From: Escherichia phage A5-4
DNA length: 64,000 bases
Direction: 5' to 3' (one strand)
Sequence record: OP744025
The notes under the pieces are model-generated. The model had not been told where the DNA came from, ran no database searches, and saw only the letters and a program-made list of their open reading frames with translations. Positions 41,156-62,582 of the stretch are shown piece by piece. The translations under genes and the position numbers were made by a program. Each line of letters starts with the position of its first letter. Position 1 is the stretch's first letter.

Positions 41156-41644
41156 TTATGGGCAACACCGTGGAGATCTTCCACAGAAGAATTGCCAATT
41201 GGTTTCTGAGTCTTTGTAATTTACAAACCCTATCCTTCCGCACCCTTTCCCACTACAAACCGCTTCACGAGGATGATAGTCTATACTGCAAGAGTGGGGA
41301 TGATCAAACGCTTCTCGTATTTCAACACAGAGTCTACTTAACCAAGCGAACATTTTTGGCATAGAAGCTTCAAGGAGTTTAAGTTCATCGACCGTAGGTT
41401 TGTCTTTCTCCATGAAGAAGTCATTTATCTCGGAAAACAAAATCACGTTTTGAACTATACCGCTGCTTACCTTGTAAGAGAACTCCTCAGTAAGTCTCAC
41501 AGTAACTTCCTCTATCAATTCTTTTTCATTATCTTGATCTTTTGCTAATCTTTCTTCAATCCATCGGATAACGAAGAATCTTTCTCTCTGAACATCCATG
41601 TTCAAAGTATTGATTATTTTTTCATAGATTAGGTTTCCTTCCAT
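41156..41644 (-). CDS. hypothetical protein with C-terminal Cys/His cluster
   Basis: HPHSCS...CSGKGCGRIG...CGRSPRCC. Confidence 0.5.
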   Translation of the reverse strand: MEGNLIYEKIINTLNMDVQRERFFVIRWIEERLAKDQDNEKELIEEVTVRLTEEFSYKVSSGIVQNVILFSEINDFFMEKDKPTVDELKLLEASMPKMFAWLSRLCVEIREAFDHPHSCSIDYHPREAVCSGKGCGRIGFVNYKDSETNWQFFCGRSPRCCP

Positions 41645-42756
41645 ACCTTGTCTTGTGCCTCCAGGATAAGTTTTTCAACAATCTTCAGATCTGTTTTCTT
41701 TGGTAAGCTCGATTGCTTATAAAGAACATCTGTGATCATTTTATCTTTTTCTTCAGCCCAGTCAACAATTTCTTCATAGCGGTATTCACCATTTCGGATT
41801 GCGAGGAGTTCTTCAGCGTCTGGTCGATTAACTAAAACTTTACCTTCTGTGAGGATTTCTTCACCCATCCGAAGAAGCCGGACCAAATGCATAGCATGTT
41901 TAGTGTCGTAACCGAACTTCTCTTCCAGTTCATGACGCTTCTCGTTACGATTCTTAACCCATTCCCAATAGTTGTGGTGTTTCTCCTTGGCCCATTTATG
42001 ATCGTCAGCACAATACTTAACAATCATCAGTGTCTTACCTCTTTTAACTTCATCTGGGATTTCTTCATAGTCCAGCTTACGGATAGAACCATCTTTGTTA
42101 AACATAGGTTCAACATTTTCACGACGATCCTCTACAACGCCGTAAATGTTACTGCCGTAATGAACCAAAGTACAGAAGCCTTCCATGTTTTTAAATTTAC
42201 GAACAAAGTCTTCGTACTTCAACTCACCTTCTCCGAGATAGCTCTGCACCAGACGGAAATAGTCAAATTGAGTTGGTGGCTCTTTTGGTTGCGGATTATT
42301 AATGTGTTTGTTGTGACCCTTGATCCGCTTTAACTGAGACATTGCATAACCACTGAAGCGAAATGCAACTTCACGAGACAGTAAGGAGTAGAAATGTTCT
42401 TTCATCTCTTTCCAAGCTTCGTGCTCGTACAATGTGGCTTTCGGATCAGTAAAACCCAGTTCAATGATATTTGGGTTCATCTTCGAAAACAGTTGAAGGA
42501 AAGTTCCCAATTCGTAGATCTTGGCATCCTCTTCACCAGGGATGTTTAATTCAGTAACCTCTTTGAATGGGGTACGAACCACATTTGGGGTTGCAACAAA
42601 AACCCCACGGATATCAATATCACTACCTTCGTTATTCGTACCATACGCATGAGATCCTGCCAGACTCAACATCAGTACCTTCGCCACGTCTGGATGATTT
42701 TCCATCTTCTCTACGATACTTTTTACCTTTCCAGCACTCACAACTGAATTTTCCAT
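41629..42756 (-). CDS. Pol-beta superfamily nucleotidyltransferase
   Basis: LAGSHAYGTNNEGSDIDIRGV = G-S-x10-D-x-D NTase signature; 375 aa. Confidence 0.65.
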   Translation of the reverse strand: MENSVVSAGKVKSIVEKMENHPDVAKVLMLSLAGSHAYGTNNEGSDIDIRGVFVATPNVVRTPFKEVTELNIPGEEDAKIYELGTFLQLFSKMNPNIIELGFTDPKATLYEHEAWKEMKEHFYSLLSREVAFRFSGYAMSQLKRIKGHNKHINNPQPKEPPTQFDYFRLVQSYLGEGELKYEDFVRKFKNMEGFCTLVHYGSNIYGVVEDRRENVEPMFNKDGSIRKLDYEEIPDEVKRGKTLMIVKYCADDHKWAKEKHHNYWEWVKNRNEKRHELEEKFGYDTKHAMHLVRLLRMGEEILTEGKVLVNRPDAEELLAIRNGEYRYEEIVDWAEEKDKMITDVLYKQSSLPKKTDLKIVEKLILEAQDKVWKET

Positions 42757-52886: not shown

Positions 52887-53297
52887 CTAGTGAGTAACTT
52901 CAGTTTTTACATACCCCAAGATCAAATCATCTTGGATCTCTTTCATCGCCACAGACATTTTCAACTGAACTTCAGCGATAGCTTCTGAATATTCAATTTC
53001 GTCTACAAAGCGTTGAAGATGTTCAGTGGATAACGAATCCATATTTTCCACGATCGCATTCTGCATTACCTTTTCGTAATTTTCAGAAGTCATCGCTTCA
53101 ACGATCTTCTGTTGATTTCGGACCTTAATGATATCTTCTTCTGTCTTATCTTCAATACCTTTCAGGAAGTCCAGCGTCATCACTGCCACTTCAAGGTTTG
53201 CGTCAATTGCCTTACCAACAACGTACTTTGCAATTTTATGAAGCAGACGCTCACGATCAGTCAGTTCTTTTTCAATTTTATCAACGGTATTAGTCAT
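52887..53297 (-). CDS. hypothetical protein
   Basis: ORF track. Confidence 0.5.
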   Translation of the reverse strand: MTNTVDKIEKELTDRERLLHKIAKYVVGKAIDANLEVAVMTLDFLKGIEDKTEEDIIKVRNQQKIVEAMTSENYEKVMQNAIVENMDSLSTEHLQRFVDEIEYSEAIAEVQLKMSVAMKEIQDDLILGYVKTEVTH

Positions 53298-53590
53298 TAC
53301 AGATCTCCCAGGTCATCGTTATTGAAGTCAAGTTCTACTTTGCTCGGCAAATTCTTTGCTACCAGTTCAGTGTAGCCTCCAACGTACTCGCTGTCAATAA
53401 AAATCTGAGGAACTGTACGTGGAACATAACCAACAGCATCGCTTACCTTTTTAACCATCTCTTGCAGATTGCCAGAGTTTGCACCCACGTCAATATACTC
53501 ATACTCATAACCTTTCTGATCAAGGAGGGTTTTTGCATTGTCACAGAATGGGCAGTTTACTTTACCATAAATCACATTACTCATTATCAA
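53297..53590 (-). CDS. glutaredoxin-like protein (NrdH/Grx family)
   Basis: CPFC active-site motif near N-terminus; located in nrd cluster. Confidence 0.75.
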   Translation of the reverse strand: MIMSNVIYGKVNCPFCDNAKTLLDQKGYEYEYIDVGANSGNLQEMVKKVSDAVGYVPRTVPQIFIDSEYVGGYTELVAKNLPSKVELDFNNDDLGDL

Positions 53591-53621: not shown

Positions 53622-53885
53622 TCACACTTCTTTGAACGTTGCAAGCACTGTTGATTCAATTTCGTAATAATTTTCACGAACTTTGATATCTTCATTCAAT
53701 GCCCAAGGTACACCAAGGTCAGTGCTTACATATTGGAGATCATCTGATCCATCATAAACAGAATTCTGTTCAAACACAAAACCTTCCACTGCAAAAGTAC
53801 AAATAAGTTTTTTCACTTTTAGAATCTCCAGGTTAAGGGCCTTTCGGCCCAGCTTATTAAAGTTCGAAATCGAAGTCAGATGCAC
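53622..53885 (-). CDS. hypothetical protein
   Basis: ORF track. Confidence 0.5.
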
Positions 53886-54954
53886 TTACTGAAGAGTCAA
53901 CCTGACCAGACAGATATTGACCATTTTCTAGTTCCTGTGGAGTCACCTGGACGTTTTTAGTATTCAGGTGGCTATTGATCCAAGGGATCGGGTTCTTCAG
54001 TGGCTTACCGATGAAACTATCTAAACCAACTGCTCGCATACGTTGGTCAGCCATATAATCTACGTATTGCCACAGGATCTCTTTATTCAGTCCAACCATC
54101 GAACCATCTTTGAACAGGTATTCTGCCCAATCACGTTCTTGCTGTCGTGCCTGTAAGAACAACTCACGGGCTTCATCTTTACAATCTTCTGCGACTCGTG
54201 CAATAAGGTCACCTTCACGACCACTCTGCATTTCGTTCAGAATATACTGAGTACCCGACAAATGCAATGCTTCATCACGAGCGATCAGTTCGATAATGTT
54301 GGTGTTGCCAGTCATGATACTACGCTCACCAAATGCAAACGAACATGCAAAACTCACATAGAAGCGGATTGCTTCCAAAGCATTAATACTGTGCATACAC
54401 AGATACAGTGCTCGTGCATGTGCATAACGATCGACTGGCAAGTTCAAAGCGTAACGACTGTTCAACTGGAATAAATCGTCATACAGCTTCGTAACTGCAT
54501 CTGCACGTTCCAGAATTTCTGGAGTTTTCATGATCTCATCAAGAATTGCAGAAGGATCACTAAATACATTTCGAATAATGTGTGTATATGAACGGCTGTG
54601 GATTGTTTCACTGAAACCCCAAGTCTCAATCCAAGTTTCCAAAGCTGGGTCAGAAACAATTGGAAGTAATACTGCATTCGGGCCACGCCCTTGAACTGAA
54701 TCAAGCAATGTTTGATACTTAAGGTTACTAATGAAAATATGTTTTTCATGATCAGGTAATCCCATAAAGTCAATTCGGTCACGGGTCACATCGATTTCTT
54801 CCGGTCGCCAGAAGAATGCCAACTGCTTTTCTGTCAGCTTTTCAAATTTGTTGTGTTTTTGCTTGTCGTAACGAGAAACGTTAACAGACTCACCAAAGAA
54901 CATCGGTTGTTCCATGAAATCAAACTGGTTTTTATTAAAAGTCGTGTAGCTCAC
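53857..54954 (-). CDS. nrdB: ribonucleotide reductase class Ia beta subunit
   Basis: [31 protein letters not shown] closely resemble E. coli NrdB. Confidence 0.9.
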
Positions 54955-55009: not shown

Positions 55010-55351
55010 TCAATAGTTATTTCTTAAAATTTCAATTCCGTATCGCTTAAAAACTTCCTTCGCTGCCATAAACTTCTGTGCTGCACTTGGATTTGAAGTA
55101 TGAACAAACAGAACAGCAGGATACAGGATCGGCTTCCCAAATACAAGCTTTTCTTCTAACATTTCTAAACAACGGTAGCCTTCTTTTGAATCTTCACCAA
55201 GGTCATTGTCGAAGTGCCATTCTGTTACCCGACGATACATTTTATTGGGGTCATCAAGGAACTCGATAAACTGGTCAGAATTTTTAAACCAGATGGCATC
55301 ATCATGCCCGTAATCTTTTGGATCTCTCAAATCATCAAGCCAAATCTTCAT
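55010..55351 (-). CDS. hypothetical protein (inserted between nrdA and nrdB)
   Basis: own promoter at 55381-55408 and AGGAGG RBS. Confidence 0.55.
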   Translation of the reverse strand: MKIWLDDLRDPKDYGHDDAIWFKNSDQFIEFLDDPNKMYRRVTEWHFDNDLGEDSKEGYRCLEMLEEKLVFGKPILYPAVLFVHTSNPSAAQKFMAAKEVFKRYGIEILRNNY

Positions 55352-55666: not shown

Positions 55667-57925
55667 TCACAGTTTACAAGCACCTGATTCGCAGCCTTCA
55701 TCCTCTTCATCTTCACCATCACGAGTTTCTTGATAGTAAACAGTCTTCAGGCCAATCTTGTAAGCATACATCAGGTCACGCAGTACAATCTTAATCGGCA
55801 GTTTGCCACCTGGATAATCCCAAGGTTTGTAGAAGGTATTGGTCGAGATCGACTGGTCAATAAACTTCTGGATGATAGCCATCAGGTTAAGATAAGCTGT
55901 CGGTCCGTTCATATCCCATTTGTACTCGTATACCACACCTTCCTCACCAACACCAGGAACCAGCGTCGGAAGCATACCCGCAGGTGACTTCTTAAACGTC
56001 ACTGGACCACGAGGAGGTTCAATGCCGTTGGTAGAGTTAGTGATCTGGCTCGATGTTTCACAAGGCATCATTGTGGACAACGTTGAGTTACGTAATCCGT
56101 GCAATGCGATATCCAGACGCAAACTTTCCCAATCTTGTTGCAATTCTGCGGTATGCAACTGATCAACTTCTTTCTTGTAGCGATCGATAGGTAAGATGCC
56201 ACGAGAATAAGATGTTTGATCGTACCACTCACAAGCACCACGCTCTTTCGCCAACTGAACAGAAGCTTTCAGCAGGTAGAACTGGAATGCTTCCGCGAGT
56301 TTATGAACTTCATTGGCAGCTTCCGGCGAACTATATTTAAGTCCACGTTTAGCCAAGTAATACGCCAAGTTAGTCCAGCCAATACCTAAAGTACGACGCA
56401 GTAACGTTTTCTCTGCTGCAAGAACAGGGTAGTTCTGATAATCAAGCAGGTTATCAAGAGCACGTACCGTGATCATAACAGGTTCTTCTAAATCTTCAAG
56501 CTTCTCGATCTTTCCGAGGTTGATTGCTGATAAAGTACACAGTGCAACTTCACCAGAATCTTTCGGGTCCTTAATGTTATTGATCGGAGCCGTAGGTAAT
56601 GCAATTTCCATACACAGGTTAGACTGCTTAATCGGAGCCACTTCAGGAAGGAACGGACTGTTGCTATTGCAATGGTCAACGTTCTGAATATAAATACGAC
56701 CCGTCTGGCTACGTTCTTGAGCTAAACGAGTGAAAGCATCAGTCGCTTCAAGCTCTTTGCGAGGAATGGAAGGATCTGCTTCCAATTTCTCATACAGTTC
56801 TGCAAATGCTTCTTGATCCGAGAAGAAGTATTTATACAGATCACCGTTTGCTACGTTTGGATGGAAGAAACTGATCTTGCCACCTTTCTGTAAGCGAGTA
56901 TAGAAGAACTTGTTGATCTGAACACCATAATCAACATGTCGTGCACGGGTGCTTTCAGTACCACGGTTGTTCTTCATTACGATCAGGTTTTCAAAGTCCC
57001 AGTGCCAAATCGGGTAGAAGTAGTTAGCTGAAGCTTTACGCAGACCACCTTGAGATGCCCAACCTAAAGATTCTTGATACATTCGAACAATGCCAACCGT
57101 ACCTGCATGTTTAACTTCCCCGCCGCGAATAGGAGCGTCCTGTCCACGAATAGCACCAAAGTTCAAACCGATACCTGCTCGCTGTGCTGCATACTTACCT
57201 TGTGCTTCAACTGCTGCAAAGATCTGGTTAATATCATCACCGGACTCAATCAGTACACAAGAACTGAATTGTCGAGTCGGGGTTCGTACCCCACCCATAA
57301 TCGGAGTAGGCAGAGAAACCTTCATGGTAGAAACCATATTGTACAGATCAATCACTTTTTGTAAACGCTTCTTAGGATCTTCTTTACTCATCAAACACAT
57401 TGCGATCAGCATCAGTGCTGTCTGAGGGGATTCAAAGATTTCACCTGTTACACGATCCTTGACCAAATACTTATCTTCATACTGACGCATAGCTGCGTAA
57501 GTGTAATCAAAATCACGGTCATGATCGATAACTGTATCTAAGAATTCAATCTCTTCCTTCGTATAATCTGAAATCAGATGTTCATCGTATTTACCGCGAG
57601 CCACAGTCATAAGAATGTGAGCATACAGTGGACGAGGTTCAAAACCACCATAAGCCTGCTTACGCAGTTTAAACAGAAGCAGACGTGCTGCTGGATACTG
57701 ATAGTTTGGACTTTCTACACTAATTAGGTCCGCTGCGGACTTGATCAGGGTATCGTGGATCGCGTCTGTTTCTACACCATCATACATCTGAATCTGAGAT
57801 TTCATCAGGATATCAGAAGGACTTACATCATTAACCCCTTCACAAGACCAAACTACAACACGGTTTATTTTCTCAGCTTCGAATTTCTCTACAGAACCAT
57901 TACGCTTACGAACAGTAATACCCAA
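55667..57925 (-). CDS. nrdA: ribonucleotide reductase class Ia alpha subunit
   Basis: 752 aa; N-terminal ATP-cone-like region, C-terminal CESGACKL tail; strong resemblance to E. coli NrdA. Confidence 0.9.
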   Translation of the reverse strand: MGITVRKRNGSVEKFEAEKINRVVVWSCEGVNDVSPSDILMKSQIQMYDGVETDAIHDTLIKSAADLISVESPNYQYPAARLLLFKLRKQAYGGFEPRPLYAHILMTVARGKYDEHLISDYTKEEIEFLDTVIDHDRDFDYTYAAMRQYEDKYLVKDRVTGEIFESPQTALMLIAMCLMSKEDPKKRLQKVIDLYNMVSTMKVSLPTPIMGGVRTPTRQFSSCVLIESGDDINQIFAAVEAQGKYAAQRAGIGLNFGAIRGQDAPIRGGEVKHAGTVGIVRMYQESLGWASQGGLRKASANYFYPIWHWDFENLIVMKNNRGTESTRARHVDYGVQINKFFYTRLQKGGKISFFHPNVANGDLYKYFFSDQEAFAELYEKLEADPSIPRKELEATDAFTRLAQERSQTGRIYIQNVDHCNSNSPFLPEVAPIKQSNLCMEIALPTAPINNIKDPKDSGEVALCTLSAINLGKIEKLEDLEEPVMITVRALDNLLDYQNYPVLAAEKTLLRRTLGIGWTNLAYYLAKRGLKYSSPEAANEVHKLAEAFQFYLLKASVQLAKERGACEWYDQTSYSRGILPIDRYKKEVDQLHTAELQQDWESLRLDIALHGLRNSTLSTMMPCETSSQITNSTNGIEPPRGPVTFKKSPAGMLPTLVPGVGEEGVVYEYKWDMNGPTAYLNLMAIIQKFIDQSISTNTFYKPWDYPGGKLPIKIVLRDLMYAYKIGLKTVYYQETRDGEDEEDEGCESGACKL

Positions 57926-57936
57926 TTTATTTCTCC

Positions 57937-58185
57937 TTATTTAGTTTCAGTTTTAGTTGCAGACTTGTTGATCAGGGTATCATATTTATCGACATTTTCA
58001 AGTGTCGGTTCACCTAATCGAACAGTTAATCCAGAATATTGATCGTGGTAAGTGTCGTCATAACCAAACGAGTCATCAACCAGATCATTAAACTGCAACC
58101 AACCTAAGTATTCATGCTTACTTGCAAAACCACGCTGGAACCATTTAGTTTGTTCAACCGGAACTGTTAATTTAGATTTACCCAT
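57937..58185 (-). CDS. hypothetical protein
   Basis: ORF track. Confidence 0.5.
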   Translation of the reverse strand: MGKSKLTVPVEQTKWFQRGFASKHEYLGWLQFNDLVDDSFGYDDTYHDQYSGLTVRLGEPTLENVDKYDTLINKSATKTETK

Positions 58186-58199
58186 AATATCTCTCCTTA

Positions 58200-58673
58200 T
58201 TATTTAATCAGTGTTTCAGAAAACTCAGGAAGATCCATAACGATTGTTTCGGAACGATCTTCTTTTCGTGTGTACTTACGGGTATTCACCTTTTCAACAA
58301 CCGGAATATCAAAATCTAAAGAGTTAACAAAAGCTGTTGCTTTTGAACTTCTAACATCCAGAATGTCCATCTTTTCATAGATATCTACCAGCGGGAATTC
58401 TGATTTGTCACGTAGACGTCCAGAAAACACTGTTGTTTCACGGCAAAGGTACGGCTTGTCGATACAACGCACATTCACTCGGTTAATTCGGTCAATCTGG
58501 CAAGGTTTATATTCACCAGTCTCTTCATTCAGAATTGAAACTTGGAAACCGATCAGGTGAAGGACTTTACGAAGAGTTTTGTCATCCTTCGGGTCGAAGT
58601 TCATGATTTTTGCACATTCCAAAATGAAATCCAGAGTTACTGCACCGTATTTAACTTCTTTCTTAAAACCCAT
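58200..58673 (-). CDS. hypothetical protein
   Basis: start moved to ATG 58673 with GAGGAG RBS. Confidence 0.5.
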   Translation of the reverse strand: MGFKKEVKYGAVTLDFILECAKIMNFDPKDDKTLRKVLHLIGFQVSILNEETGEYKPCQIDRINRVNVRCIDKPYLCRETTVFSGRLRDKSEFPLVDIYEKMDILDVRSSKATAFVNSLDFDIPVVEKVNTRKYTRKEDRSETIVMDLPEFSETLIK

Positions 58674-58760
58674 TTTAATCTCCTCGTACAACATTTTAAA
58701 AGTGGGGCAACATGCCCCAGCGCCGATAATGATATAAAATTAACTAACCAATGTCAATAA

Positions 58761-59783
58761 TTATTTTGCAACATGTCCAGGAATTAACTGACGATGTTGA
58801 ACAAACCCTTTCAGGTTACCACTCCAGAAGTTACCGTCGCGATCTACGTGAGTAATGCCTTCTTCCCAAGATTCTGGACACCACGGCACGTTCACCATGC
58901 TCTGCCCTTCTTCAACATCCTCACACGTTTCCTGGATCTCCTTCGCCTGATGCTCGAATGGAGAAGCGTGAACCTTTTTACCCGATACAAGCTTGGCATA
59001 AATATCCAGAGCCTTATCTTTCGTATTGTTAAGACGACGATAACTTACCTGCCCACAACAAGAGGAAGAGATAGACAAAGCTTCTTCTTCAGACAGCATA
59101 ATATGATTACCATCTTCATCCTGTACACAATACCCTGCGAAAATATGTCCATCGCCCAAAGGTCCAGAGTCGAAGCAATGATCTACGTAAGGAGTATGCC
59201 ACACCCCAGGCTGTAACCATTCTGGAGTAGAAGCTTTATAAGCTTCGTGCATTTTCTTAGCCAATACTTCGATCGTTGGATCTGCATCTGCATCAACACG
59301 TAGCCAGAAGAAGTTTTCAAATTCCGTTGCTGTAACGATAGTCTTCATCATCTGGAACGGTTCGATCAATCGGTTAGCAATCTGCTTATGGAACCCTGCC
59401 GTCTCGAAACGTTCTGCCCATTCACAGGCATTTTCCGCAGCCTTGGCCCAAGCTTCTCGTCCGGTACAGTACAGTTCATGACACACGCCACTTGTATCTT
59501 CCACCCAATCATACCATACTTTACCATCATGTTCTGTTCCTTTATCCTGCATACCAGGTTGGTTAGCACCAAATCGAACAGGCATTGCCATATTTTCACG
59601 GATCAGTTTAACCATTGTCTTGATCGGCACTGCACGAGAAGACATTGCATTTCGGCTAAACAGTCGGTGCGTCATAAGTTCTGAGTGAATGAATCGAGGA
59701 TAGGTCAATTCAAACGTGGTGATACGAGCTTTACTACGATAGCCAACAGAATCTGCAATAATACGGGCTTCAATCATGGACAT
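58761..59783 (-). CDS. thyX: ThyX-family (flavin-dependent thymidylate synthase-like) protein, atypical
   Basis: THRLFSRNAMSSR matches ThyX signature RHR-x7-S except first Arg is Thr; FFW motif; 340 aa, longer than canonical ThyX. Confidence 0.55.
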   Translation of the reverse strand: MSMIEARIIADSVGYRSKARITTFELTYPRFIHSELMTHRLFSRNAMSSRAVPIKTMVKLIRENMAMPVRFGANQPGMQDKGTEHDGKVWYDWVEDTSGVCHELYCTGREAWAKAAENACEWAERFETAGFHKQIANRLIEPFQMMKTIVTATEFENFFWLRVDADADPTIEVLAKKMHEAYKASTPEWLQPGVWHTPYVDHCFDSGPLGDGHIFAGYCVQDEDGNHIMLSEEEALSISSSCCGQVSYRRLNNTKDKALDIYAKLVSGKKVHASPFEHQAKEIQETCEDVEEGQSMVNVPWCPESWEEGITHVDRDGNFWSGNLKGFVQHRQLIPGHVAK

Positions 59784-59799
59784 TCAAATCTCCTCTCTA

Positions 59800-60006
59800 T
59801 TAATTTAAATCTTCAACAAATTGTGGCAAGTAATCTTCAATTGGGCTACTCAAATCATTTTCTCTTACAATTTCCAAGTTAGCAAGTCTTTTCTTTGCCA
59901 AGTAAGAAATAAATTCCTTAGTATCTACCCTGTGTCCTTCTAGTGCCAACTTACCGTCAATATAAACACCTTCCCAATCTTCACCTTCGAAAAATACTAT
60001 TTTCAT
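59800..60006 (-). CDS. hypothetical protein
   Basis: ORF track. Confidence 0.5.
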   Translation of the reverse strand: MKIVFFEGEDWEGVYIDGKLALEGHRVDTKEFISYLAKKRLANLEIVRENDLSSPIEDYLPQFVEDLN

Positions 60007-60188
60007 TTTATTTTCCTGATTTTGTAATCAACACGAACATCATACATAACGTGAAGATACATGTCAAACATTTCTTTGCACATATCGCTTTTTACTTTGA
60101 AGGAAGCCAAAAGGCTTCCATTTTCTTTAGAAAGGATCTCTACATAATCCCCTTCCCTAACTACCCACCTTCCTTTACCACATCTCAA
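60003..60188 (-). CDS. hypothetical protein
   Basis: ORF track; 4-nt overlaps both sides. Confidence 0.5.
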   Translation of the reverse strand: MRCGKGRWVVREGDYVEILSKENGSLLASFKVKSDMCKEMFDMYLHVMYDVRVDYKIRKIK

Positions 60189-60790
60189 GATTCTCTCTCC
60201 AAAATAAATTCAGCAATCGATGCCCAATCGCTAGTTACCAAGTCGTAACATCCGATCTCTTCTTCATCTTGACTGAAGGGTGTATCATACTTGATTTTTA
60301 CTACCTTGTCACTAAATTGATTCAAAAATTTATTACGATCATCAATGATGTAATCACCCGAAACTCCAGCCTTGTACTTTGTAGCATAAAAACCACACCC
60401 GTCTGTTCCATTTTCAAGGTCCAGGTTAGGGAAGTGTCGCTTCAAGAAACGAACCTTACTGCTAAAATGACCTTTCTTGCAATAAGAAACAAACCGAATA
60501 GGGAATCCTGCGGCATGTAACTTGTTGATTGCATCTACCGCTCCCGCAATAGGGAACATCTTATCATACAAGAAAGGATCTTCCCAATAATCATACGGAG
60601 GGATAGCCTTCTTACAGCGATCAGGGAAGTACCGAGAAAGATTGTAATCAAAATACCCATTCTCGCTAATGTCCTTTTCCATAAGGTCAGAATCAGCCTC
60701 CATATTATAGATGCTTTCCATCCAGTGCAACCAAGGCCATCCAGAATCAACGATAGTTAAGTCAACATCCACAATGATCGCTTTTTTCAT
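60185..60790 (-). CDS. HAD-superfamily phosphatase (5'-nucleotidase-like)
   Basis: N-terminal DVDLT (DxDxT) motif; adjacent to dNMP kinase. Confidence 0.6.
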   Translation of the reverse strand: MKKAIIVDVDLTIVDSGWPWLHWMESIYNMEADSDLMEKDISENGYFDYNLSRYFPDRCKKAIPPYDYWEDPFLYDKMFPIAGAVDAINKLHAAGFPIRFVSYCKKGHFSSKVRFLKRHFPNLDLENGTDGCGFYATKYKAGVSGDYIIDDRNKFLNQFSDKVVKIKYDTPFSQDEEEIGCYDLVTSDWASIAEFILERES

Positions 60791-61429
60791 TTACTCTTTC
60801 CCCTCTGAGAGTTTGATAATTAATTTTGCAGTTTCAGTTAGCTTACCATTAACGTTTTCAACGTCGAAATCTCTAGGTCGTGCACTTTCAGGGAAATTCT
60901 CAGAGTAAATATAATTACGAGAATCACCTTCAAAAGTTAATTTATTACCTGTTCGTGGATCAGTACGATGTAAACGGATCAGGGTGTAATCACCATTTAC
61001 CGCTTTAACTACCGGAACACTTTCATGAATAAATCCACCATCAGAGCTAATAAATGTACAAGTATAACCATCCATTTCCATACTTTTCGCAATATCTTTA
61101 ACACGCTTGGCAAGAGCAACACCGAAGTATTCTTCCCCGAAGAGAGGCTTCGCAACATTCTCCGAGATGTGGATCAGCCAGTTACGTGGGGACACTTGTT
61201 TACCTGCAACATTAAAATATGGTTGAGGTACTTCTTTATAATCACGGTGGTAAAGTGCATCCCACAGTTCACGATTAATACCTGCAATACGAATAGCTAG
61301 ATCGATAAGGGAACCTTTAAACTCCACATGAATACCCACGTTGTTGCCTACGGTAACTAACTGAGCGATCTCACCAGCAAGAGCATCTTTACCAGAAAAA
61401 GCAGGACCATTCAAATTGATAAATTTCAT
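60791..61429 (-). CDS. deoxynucleoside monophosphate kinase-like P-loop kinase
   Basis: NGPAFSGKD P-loop at N-terminus; 212 aa. Confidence 0.6.
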   Translation of the reverse strand: MKFINLNGPAFSGKDALAGEIAQLVTVGNNVGIHVEFKGSLIDLAIRIAGINRELWDALYHRDYKEVPQPYFNVAGKQVSPRNWLIHISENVAKPLFGEEYFGVALAKRVKDIAKSMEMDGYTCTFISSDGGFIHESVPVVKAVNGDYTLIRLHRTDPRTGNKLTFEGDSRNYIYSENFPESARPRDFDVENVNGKLTETAKLIIKLSEGKE

Positions 61430-61458
61430 ATTAATCTCCTCTCAGTTTCACAATAAAA

Positions 61459-61478
61459 AACCGCCCCGAAGGGCGGTT
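61459..61478 (-). terminator. terminator hairpin AACCGCCCCGAAGGGCGGTT (copy 3)
   Basis: followed by T6 on minus strand, 30 nt upstream of dNMP kinase start. Confidence 0.65.
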
Positions 61479-61487
61479 AAATCAAAA

Positions 61488-62582
61488 TTACAGAATGTTT
61501 GCCAGCGTTTTCTTCATCGCTGCCTTCTCGCGAACATTCTGACGATCTCGTGCACAAGAACCACATTCTTGACAACGATAAATCTTGAACTTAGACAAGA
61601 ACGTTACTGCTGACTTACCTTCCTCAATAACCAAGTCGTCACTACCACAACGAACACAACGCATTGCCGTCTGATCTTTGTGGAACAATGCAATGTTCGG
61701 ATGTTTACGCATGAAAGGTCGTACAGTCAGATACAGTTCTTCCAGCGTTGGAATATCACCAATGTTATATTCTTCCATCTCTTCAAATGCGGTTGGGTCA
61801 CCTTCAACACAACGTCGCCACAGACTGAAACCTTCGTGCGACAGCTTACGACTATCAAGTTCAAAATAGTTACATGCTGCTTCAAGTGCATTTGAAGGAA
61901 GAGAGAAAGCTTCTTTCAGTGCAGCCAATGTATCGATCGTAATGTAAGGACTTGGTGGTTGCATACCGTAATATGCGAAACGCTGATTTGCCCAACCACG
62001 GTCAAAGCGAGCATTATGTGCGATGAAGATATCACATTCATCCAGAACTTTCCACAGGTCTTCGATCAACTTACGATCTGACTGGTGATCTCGTGCAAAC
62101 TCTTCTGGATAATCCGTCAGCTTACGGCTGAAGATCGACGGGTTGTGCAACCACTTACCAGCAAATGTCAGCATGTACGGTTCCATAATTACCTGCTTCG
62201 GTGCAATGAACTGTTTAAATCGTCCAAACGAATATGCAACAGAAGGAGATGTTTCAACGTCACCAAGGAAAACTTTAGCACCTGGGTTCTGCTCTTTGAT
62301 CTTTTCAATGAAATCTTTTTGAATCTTAGCAACAGGTTCACCACCCGACTCTTTCTGCTGCATATATTCTGCATAGTTTTCGTAATCTTCATACGCCGGA
62401 GTGATTTCAAGGAGTTCTTTAACGCTTGAAACATCATTCTTTTCAATTTCACGACGGATCATATTACGAACCGTGGATTCCTGAGACTCTTTACCCAATT
62501 GGCGAGCTACTTCGCGCTGAGACAGACCGTGTTTCATCAGTTGCAGAACTTGTTCAACAGTAAAAGTTACTTTATTAGTCAC
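61488..62582 (-). CDS. DEDD-type 3'-5' exonuclease (RNase H-like fold) with N-terminal HTH
   Basis: GDVETS (Exo I-like) and FIAHNARFD (Exo II-like); N-terminal LSQREVARQLG helix-turn-helix. Confidence 0.6.
   Translation of the reverse strand: MTNKVTFTVEQVLQLMKHGLSQREVARQLGKESQESTVRNMIRREIEKNDVSSVKELLEITPAYEDYENYAEYMQQKESGGEPVAKIQKDFIEKIKEQNPGAKVFLGDVETSPSVAYSFGRFKQFIAPKQVIMEPYMLTFAGKWLHNPSIFSRKLTDYPEEFARDHQSDRKLIEDLWKVLDECDIFIAHNARFDRGWANQRFAYYGMQPPSPYITIDTLAALKEAFSLPSNALEAACNYFELDSRKLSHEGFSLWRRCVEGDPTAFEEMEEYNIGDIPTLEELYLTVRPFMRKHPNIALFHKDQTAMRCVRCGSDDLVIEEGKSAVTFLSKFKIYRCQECGSCARDRQNVREKAAMKKTLANIL

Follow-up and report, generated by a model that had tools for sequence, protein, structure and literature searches.

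Introduction

The canonical flavin-dependent thymidylate synthases (ThyX or Thy1; PF02511, TIGR02170), such as TM0449 of Thermotoga maritima (1O26, 5CHP) and A674R of PBCV-1 (4FZB), are the closest described relatives of the phage protein considered here. In ThyX, the flavin carries the methylene group from methylenetetrahydrofolate (CH2-H4folate) to C5 of dUMP and then reduces it (PMC8989533), and organisms with thyX have no absolute requirement for FolA (PMC9931769). ThyA types, including T4 Td and the dCMP and dUMP hydroxymethylases, have the same expected role, namely C5 one-carbon transfer beside genes for ribonucleotide reductase (RNR) and deoxynucleoside monophosphate (dNMP) kinase, but their fold is unrelated to that of the ThyX-like protein, and ThyA makes dihydrofolate and needs dihydrofolate reductase (DHFR). 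Phages usually have either ThyA or ThyX (PMC7824862), and all known phage base-modifying one-carbon transferases are of the ThyA type, not of the ThyX type (PMC8989533). Here we analyzed a ThyX-like gene at 58761..59783 on the minus strand of a 64,000-nucleotide (nt) stretch of Escherichia phage A5-4 (OP744025), the whole of which is referred to as the window. A reading made from the sequence alone had described its product as an atypical ThyX-like protein, either a divergent flavin-dependent thymidylate synthase or a pyrimidine-modifying paralogue. We conclude that the gene quite probably encodes a phage-type flavin-dependent thymidylate synthase with the ThyX fold and a permuted polypeptide order.

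Results

The protein belongs to a large family of phage ThyX-like proteins

The coding sequence starts with ATG and encodes 340 amino acids (aa) followed by a stop codon; a Shine-Dalgarno sequence, GAGGAG, was read directly from the sequence at 59790..59795 on the same strand, 6 nt 5' of the start codon. The protein matched Pfam Thy1 (PF02511) with 42.1 bits against a gathering cutoff of 24.8 (E 1.1e-10), the native order covering profile positions 60-191 only, and matched PHROG_85, 'thymidylate synthase', at E 2.6e-103. Database searches returned 5,405 homologues at E <= 1e-5. These three results rule out a chance match. In addition, 4,892 clusters at 50% identity matched at E <= 1e-3, and copies are present in 1,034 phage records, among them rV5-like, phAPEC8-like, CR3-like, ICP1, PB1-like, PAK_P1-like, N4-like and phiCbK-like phages. 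The three-dimensional fold is that of ThyX, with Foldseek searches against PDB and BFVD yielding only ThyX or thymidylate synthases, and no Pfam match to the ThyA domain (Thymidylat_synt) was found in the protein. The designation 'divergent flavin-dependent thymidylate synthase' is therefore supported by the fold and the domain, as it is by the retained catalytic residues described below.

The protein is 100% identical to gp203 (A73_203, WBF77751.1) of Escherichia phage A73, which is already labelled "putative thymidylate synthase". Over positions 58000-61500, the window shares 99.7% identity with Escherichia phages A73 and W70, both members of the genus Septuagintavirus in the Vequintavirinae. 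In the publication on these two phages, the thymidylate synthase was named from an InterPro match to the ThyX superfamily, and no experiment on it was reported (PMC11370258). Other annotated orthologues include the 'FAD-dependent thymidylate synthase' of rV5, UPEC06 QUL77209, the 'putative thymidylate synthase' of ICP1 and PHROG_85, which share the permuted architecture described below and are 44-94% identical over their full length. It is thus already known that the protein belongs to a huge annotated phage ThyX-like family and is not an isolated oddity. The protein falls within the Septuagintavirus/Certrevirus branch, which differs in one stretch, reading L-R-V-D-A-D-A-D-P where the family consensus is L-R-x-H-x-D-A-Q-P. 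Conservation within the family was counted over 128 aligned sequences, the query and 127 representatives sharing 39-61% identity with it; the median length of the representatives is 322 aa.

Among the database records, 19 to 24 unannotated entries named 'Campylobacter phage' (MG0656xx; for example C14, B15, C9 and D1) carry a ThyX-like gene with 97-99% nt identity to that of E. coli rV5-like phages, which suggests that these records are mislabelled or contaminating Vequintavirus sequences.

The flavin-binding segment follows the catalytic core

In native order, both the Pfam and the TIGR matches lack the first ~59 profile positions, and a string in the C-terminal half, '...VSYRR...KVHASPFEHQ', resembles the canonical N-terminal '...VSF...GHETPFEH'. 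A cut-and-paste test was conducted in which aa 231-278 were moved between aa 15 and 19; as a control, the same segment was used in reversed form. The Pfam score of the query rose from 42.1 to 57.5 bits upon re-ordering (39.0 in the reversed control), and the coverage widened to profile positions 17-191, whereas it was unchanged in the control. The same pattern was seen in three further members of the family, with P0135 going from 14.2 to 19.5 bits (control, 11.8), P0210 from 33.9 to 46.0 (control, 32.0), and P0141, which gave no match either natively or in the control, reaching 19.4 bits. With TIGR02170, the query rose from 43.2 to about 59 bits, P0210 from 32.7 to about 45, and P0123 from 42.5 to about 56. 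Neither the native protein nor the family profile matched any ThyX among the PDB sequences, where no solved relative was found, whereas the re-ordered query found T. maritima ThyX at E 0.016 in an alignment that spans the artificial junction. PolB of Streptomyces cacaoi (4P5A), an enzyme of polyoxin biosynthesis that has the canonical collinear order, likewise gave an alignment with the re-ordered query that spans the junction; it resembles the phage protein no more closely than ordinary ThyX does, and it acts in antibiotic biosynthesis and not in phage DNA replication.

Profile-profile comparison by hhalign was conducted with a canonical profile of 120 ThyX sequences gathered with the T. maritima sequence (100% match to the database entry). 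The native family profile gave two local matches in swapped order: positions 209-338 against T. maritima 6-141 (probability 90%, E 1.5e-6), reliably aligned at 233-282 against 20-69, and positions 13-214 against T. maritima 48-214 (probability 88%, E 3e-6). The collinear order of ThyX, in which the N-terminal helices and the H53 motif precede the RHR loop, was thus not found, and the two matches merge only after re-ordering, when the columns form one alignment over T. maritima 20-200 (probability 97.9%, E 5.7e-13, score 89.5), compared with E 1.6e-6 and a score of 48.5 for the reversed-segment control. These comparisons show that the flavin-binding segment, N-terminal in canonical ThyX, comes after the catalytic core in the phage protein. 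The permuted order, which on the same alignments runs across the whole family, is new and was overlooked by the sequence-only reading. The permutation accounts for the failure of curated equivalog models and PDB sequence searches to pick up these proteins.

The place of the canonical beta1-beta2 hairpin is either aa 1-19 or about aa 209-230, since two re-ordering variants score alike with TIGR02170 and the hhalign confidence is near zero there; linker residues 209-230 may correspond to it, at low confidence. Two internal repeats were also considered and rejected. Neither the idea that the C-terminal tail (aa 279-340) repeats beta3/alpha3/RHR in degenerate form ('VQHRQ' compared with 'FRHRI') nor the idea that the linker and N-terminal strand are a duplicated hairpin held up, the hhalign probabilities being below 1%.

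The extra length is distributed over four places

The protein was said to be longer than typical ThyX, and it is: its 340 aa compare with 188-258 aa for solved ThyX chains and 211 positions for the TIGR02170 model, and it exceeds the 220-aa T. maritima ThyX by about 120 aa. The excess lies in four places, which are an N-terminal strand (aa 1-19), an insert (aa 64-107), a linker (aa 185-230) and a C-terminal extension (aa 280-340). The displaced flavin-binding segment and the C-terminal extension together explain the greater part of the additional residues. The signature loop, discussed below, precedes variable insert 1 (59463..59594, minus strand, as are all parts of the gene), which forms a beta hairpin in the model and is 24-70 aa long across the family. 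The helical catalytic core follows at aa 108-184 (59232..59462) and contains R138 (equivalent to T. maritima R147; codon 59370-59372), N157 (N169) and L161-R162 (L173-R174; R162 codon 59298-59300). In the model secondary structure, the linker (59094..59231), with its W195-H-T-P-Y motif, is rich in beta strands and bridges the gap between the last part of the canonical domain and the relocated flavin-binding segment. The latter (aa 231-279, 58947..59093) is homologous to T. maritima ~20-59 according to hhalign and the cut-and-paste tests, and includes the H-A-S-P-F-E-H motif at 58950-58970.

The C-terminal extension (58764..58946) has no counterpart in canonical ThyX, and no similarity to the rest of the protein or to canonical ThyX was detectable by hhalign. 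Variable insert 2 (aa 280-308) is followed there by a tail, G309-x-T-H...W-S-G-N-x-x-G-[WF]-x-Q-x-R, so that the last 32 of its 61 residues are conserved in the family; R331 (codon 58791-58793) is present in 128/128, Q329 in 123/128 and N323 in 119/128 sequences.

An 'FFW' motif had also been taken as a ThyX feature. These residues (aa 158-160, in NFFWLR) align with T. maritima N-F-L-N-L-R (169-174) and not with R-F-F-W-T-V (157-162), and FFW is therefore no common motif of ThyX; the residues conserved at this place are L161-R162.

A Thr opens the signature loop in most of the family

Residues 38-50 (THRLFSRNAMSSR; 59634..59672) form the loop T-H-R-x7-S-x-R where ThyX has RHR-x7-S-x-R. In the HMMER alignment to T. 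maritima ThyX, T38 corresponds to R78, H39 to H79, R40 to R80, S48 to S88 and R50 to R90, which bears out the claim that the signature begins with Thr in place of the first Arg of RHR-x7-S. The rest of the motif is present, and H39, R40, S48 and R50 are conserved in 126, 101, 125 and 126 of the 128 sequences, respectively. R78, R80, S88 and R90 are direct dUMP ligands that are conserved in the ThyX family (PMC3498832), and R78 is present in 120/120 of our canonical sequences.

At position 38 the family has Thr in 121 sequences, Arg in 2 and Lys in 3, and the region is absent from 2. The presence of T38 in 121 of the 126 informative representatives rules out a one-off mutation or a sequencing error. 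The Thr and the extra length had been presented as peculiarities of a single protein, but both are family-wide; homologues with the same Thr, which the sequence-only reading had named among the observations to look for, make up 121/128. The few members with RHR or KHR at positions 38-40 show that position 38 truly corresponds to the first Arg of canonical ThyX and that a single family can have Thr or Arg/Lys there interchangeably. We infer that another conserved basic residue would take the place of R78, the candidates being R331, R30, R44/K44, K133 and R249. One of the RHR members lacks R249 and the other keeps it, too few sequences to infer which residue compensates for R78.

The lineages of P0135, P0141, P0218 and P0210 have THG, THQ, THS or THK together with H-A-S-A-M-Q-H or H-G-S-A-F-A-H where other members read H-A-S-P-F-E-H; their Pfam scores are either under the threshold or close to it (14-34 bits, or no match). 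Variant motifs combined with weak Pfam scores indicate that the family is heterogeneous, and some of these branches may have diverged further in function.

Active-site positions are partly retained and partly replaced

Residues were mapped from the HMMER and hhalign alignments to T. maritima ThyX. Each of fourteen canonical positions is kept by 79-100% of the family. Besides the four of the signature already given, these are S43 (S83; 113/128) and N45 (N85; 119/128) in the same loop, R138 (R147; 127/128), N157 (N169; 127/128) and R162 (R174; 128/128) in the helical core, and S247 (S30; 128/128), H272 (H53; 128/128), S274 (T55; 124/128), E277 (E58; 122/128) and H278 (H59; 127/128) in the relocated segment. 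R143 is changed conservatively to K133 (127/128). In the canonical set, all of these positions are found in 120/120 sequences except S30 (110), T55 (83) and R143 (102). Outside the signature, S247, H272, E277, R138 and R162 are thus present and 95-100% conserved, whereas the equivalents of Y91, R165, N163, E86 and H178 are replaced. An extended ThyX motif has reportedly been described by Ulmer et al. in 2008.

Overall, 48 positions are at least 88% conserved among the 39-61% identical representatives, and they cluster in three active-site motifs. In the AlphaFold2 model, confidence is lowest in three stretches (aa 39-44, 246-252 and 273-275), which coincide with these three motifs, the predicted local distance difference test score being below 50 at aa 39-44. 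Low confidence at the motifs is to be expected for flexible, ligand-dependent loops.

Inteins with HNH or LAGLIDADG endonuclease domains were found in 18/150 representatives, which are 524-683 aa long (P0132, P0133, P0137, P0153, P0160, P0188, P0193, P0205, P0207-P0209, P0223, P0234, P0245, P0252, P0255, P0257 and P0262). They occupy at least five sites, all inside the motifs: between H33 and C34, R40 and C41, residue 42 and S43, S48 and S49, H164 and C165, and H272 and S273. Inteins typically occupy essential sites, and their confinement to the motifs is independent support for these being the functional heart of the protein.

The gene lies in a nucleotide-metabolism region

The neighbours named in the sequence-only reading, a dNMP kinase, a HAD nucleotidase and nrdAB, were all found by Pfam, PHROG and the open reading frame (ORF) list. 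The dNMP kinase is encoded at 60791..61429 (minus strand; phrog_139, E 1.3e-32) and an NT5C/HAD-type 5'(3')-deoxyribonucleotidase at 60185..60790 (minus strand; Pfam NT5C, E 2.3e-8; the UPEC06 homologue is annotated accordingly). On the other side of the gene are NrdA and NrdB, the alpha and beta subunits of class Ia RNR, at 55667..57925 and 53857..54954, respectively (both on the minus strand), and a glutaredoxin at 53297-53590 (Pfam, E 1.7e-16). NrdD and NrdG are found farther along. BLAST searches across the whole 142-kb A73 genome found no ThyA, canonical ThyX, DHFR, dUTPase or dCMP deaminase. A phage nucleotide-metabolism context that has no DHFR is a point of likeness to canonical ThyX.

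Between nrdA and nrdB, a 113-aa protein of unknown function is encoded at 55010-55351 on the minus strand (phrog_1479), with a match to Pfam cREC_REC (PF20274, E 5e-18), a cyclic-phosphate processing receiver domain; its UPEC06 homologue is oddly labelled 'RNA ligase 1 and tail attachment protein'. Directly 3' of the stop codon of the ThyX-like gene lies a near-consensus sigma-70-type promoter, TTGACA-17-TATCAT (11/12), at 58729-58757 on the minus strand. Next, at about 58700-58723 on the same strand, come a GC-rich hairpin, TGGGGCA-tgt-TGCCCCA, and a short T run; the hairpin was spotted by eye, the terminator scan not having called it. The next ORF, of unknown function (58200-58694; phrog_5557), lies just past the promoter and hairpin. 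Elsewhere, the window carries an indel relative to A73 upstream of about 41.7 kb, seen in one chance BLAST match offset by 192 nt (window about 41700-41900; A73 about 41500-41700), and the window is therefore no mere copy of the A73 record.

Discussion

The phage protein shares the Pfam domain and fourteen residues with canonical ThyX, and it differs in having the equivalent of canonical ~20-59 after the core, THR for RHR, the R331 tail and about 120 additional aa. The chain runs from a short strand directly through the canonical beta3/alpha3 unit with the signature loop T-H-R-x7-S-x-R to a helical core supplying the putative dUMP-binding arginines R138 and R162. After the beta-rich linker, two helices and the H-x-S-P-F-E-H motif would provide the flavin- and folate-site equivalents of S30, H53, T55 and E58, and the family-specific 61-aa tail with the invariant R331 comes last. 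Flavin binding and tetramer formation would be expected by analogy with ThyX, a homotetramer in which three subunits contribute to each active site. Catalysis is predicted to proceed as in ThyX: NAD(P)H would reduce the bound flavin, the flavin N5 would take the methylene group from CH2-H4folate, and the group would then be passed to C5 of the flavin-stacked dUMP and reduced, giving dTMP and tetrahydrofolate (H4folate). Because this route yields H4folate, no DHFR is needed. During infection, the enzyme may act in an early/middle nucleotide-metabolism block, where it would convert RNR-derived deoxyuridylate to dTMP, to be phosphorylated by the adjoining dNMP kinase. The presence of nrdAB, nrdDG, glutaredoxin, dNMP kinase and nucleotidase genes and the lack of detectable ThyA and DHFR in A73 support dTMP synthesis, and dTMP is, judging from homology, fold and context, the probable product.

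Several observations weigh against this assignment. The first Arg of R-H-R-x7-S is missing from the query, and with it one of the four listed dUMP ligands is a Thr, the other three being kept. Even among those three, R40 is present in only 101/128 sequences, some lineages having THG, THQ, THS or THK. At nine canonical positions, all of them invariant in the canonical set, the family systematically has other conserved residues; three arginines (R74, R78 and R165) and Y91 are among those replaced: R74 by S/A34, Q75 by E35, R78 by T38, E86 by A/S46, Y91 by A51 (126/128), E144 by Q134, N163 by T/S151, R165 by T153 and H178 by D/A166. Several of the replaced positions presumably contact FAD in T. 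maritima structures, and the cofactor may accordingly be held differently. The NCBIfam TIGR02170 thyX equivalog cutoff of 87.9 bits is missed in native order (43.2 bits) as well as after re-ordering (about 59). The AlphaFold2 model is a monomer without ligands, and in the searchable literature we found neither an assay of any family member nor a description of a permuted or atypical phage ThyX.

These replacements bear first on a sub-variant of the thymidylate synthase reading, in which the enzyme works on a ThyX scaffold with a changed cofactor set-up, such as FMN, a differently bound FAD, or another reductant or oligomer. The equivalents of R78, E86, N163, R165 and H178, which we take to be FAD contacts in the T. 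maritima ThyX-FAD structures, are systematically replaced, and the novel conserved C-terminal tail with its invariant R331 would fit such a change as well. However, the isoalloxazine-side equivalents of S30, H53, T55, E58, H79, R80, N169 and R174 are kept, and we regard this variant as rather unlikely.

The same nine replacements, the three arginines and Y91 included, could also be taken to mean that this ThyX-fold enzyme has another product or substrate, releasing 5-hydroxymethyl-dUMP or methylating dCMP or UMP, and supplies phage DNA or RNA with a modified pyrimidine. The gene stands beside those for a dNMP kinase and a deoxynucleotidase, and enzymes of these two kinds go along with base replacement in phages of the T4 and SPO1 types. 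The chemistry would be within reach, as 5-hydroxymethyl-dUMP builds up as an acid-trapped ThyX intermediate (PMC3498832), and PolB, a UMP/dUMP methylase (4p5a), shows that the ThyX fold can switch its sugar specificity. On the other hand, the residues that contact the uracil and phosphate, R40, S48, R50, R138 and R162, are retained, and neither a 5-hmdU (5-hydroxymethyldeoxyuridine) kinase nor transferase-type hypermodification genes are annotated in A73. The family is, moreover, found in more than 1,000 phage records of very different groups (PB1-like, PAK_P1-like, ICP1, N4-like and phiCbK-like), from which, to our knowledge, no modified thymidine is known, and all known phage hydroxymethylases are ThyA-type (PMC8989533).

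Restriction data on relatives also count against a modified base. Orthologues are present in the BASEL Vequintavirus phages AlexBoehm, EmilHeitz, MaxTheCat and WalterGehring, whose genes have 92.6-98.2% nt identity to that of phage navn, and across its full length the protein of navn shares 51.5% identity with the query. Vequintavirinae and their relatives were described as 'exceptionally susceptible' to type I-III restriction-modification systems, including EcoRI and EcoRV, with no effective protection (PMC8594841), which indicates that their DNA is not hypermodified. Among the points that qualify the thymidylate synthase reading, this sensitivity comes from Vequintavirus relatives, a sister genus whose proteins are 51% identical, and not from Septuagintavirus itself, for which the KEC4 and Septuagintavirus papers contain no DNA-composition or restriction-digest data. 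With the substrate-contacting residues kept, no hypermodification genes seen and the Vequintavirinae relatives restriction-sensitive, the pyrimidine-modifying paralogue offered by the sequence-only reading finds no support, and an enzyme of altered product appears quite unlikely. In broader terms, it is improbable that the family derives from ThyX but has a distinct chemistry, whether this yields 5-hydroxymethyl-dUMP or another C5-modified pyrimidine nucleotide or employs a different flavin or reductant; if it did, it would be the first ThyX-type, and not ThyA-type, base-diversifying enzyme in phages.

That the protein is catalytically dead and plays a structural or regulatory role, for example in a dNTP-synthesising complex, could be argued from the lost hallmark Arg, the missed NCBI equivalog cutoff and the variability of R40 in some lineages, but it is very improbable given the 48 conserved positions clustered in three active-site motifs, the inteins that target exactly those motifs, and the failure to detect any other thymidylate synthase in the phage.

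A phage-type thymidylate synthase with the ThyX fold in permuted order therefore remains our preferred reading. An origin of the permutation by tandem duplication is conjectural, as hhalign detected no trace of an internal duplication. The family forms a distinct architectural class, marked by the relocated flavin-binding segment, the THR motif, the loss of three arginines and an extra conserved tail. Its members are routinely labelled 'thymidylate synthase' or 'ThyX', including those of therapeutic-candidate phages of E. coli, Pseudomonas, Klebsiella and Vibrio, and if the family is not a dTMP synthase, more than 1,000 deposited phage records would be wrongly annotated. If it is an active dTMP synthase, R78 would be dispensable in the right context and the ThyX active site would have been solved a second way, which would bear on the mechanism of ThyX and on ThyX-targeted inhibitors.

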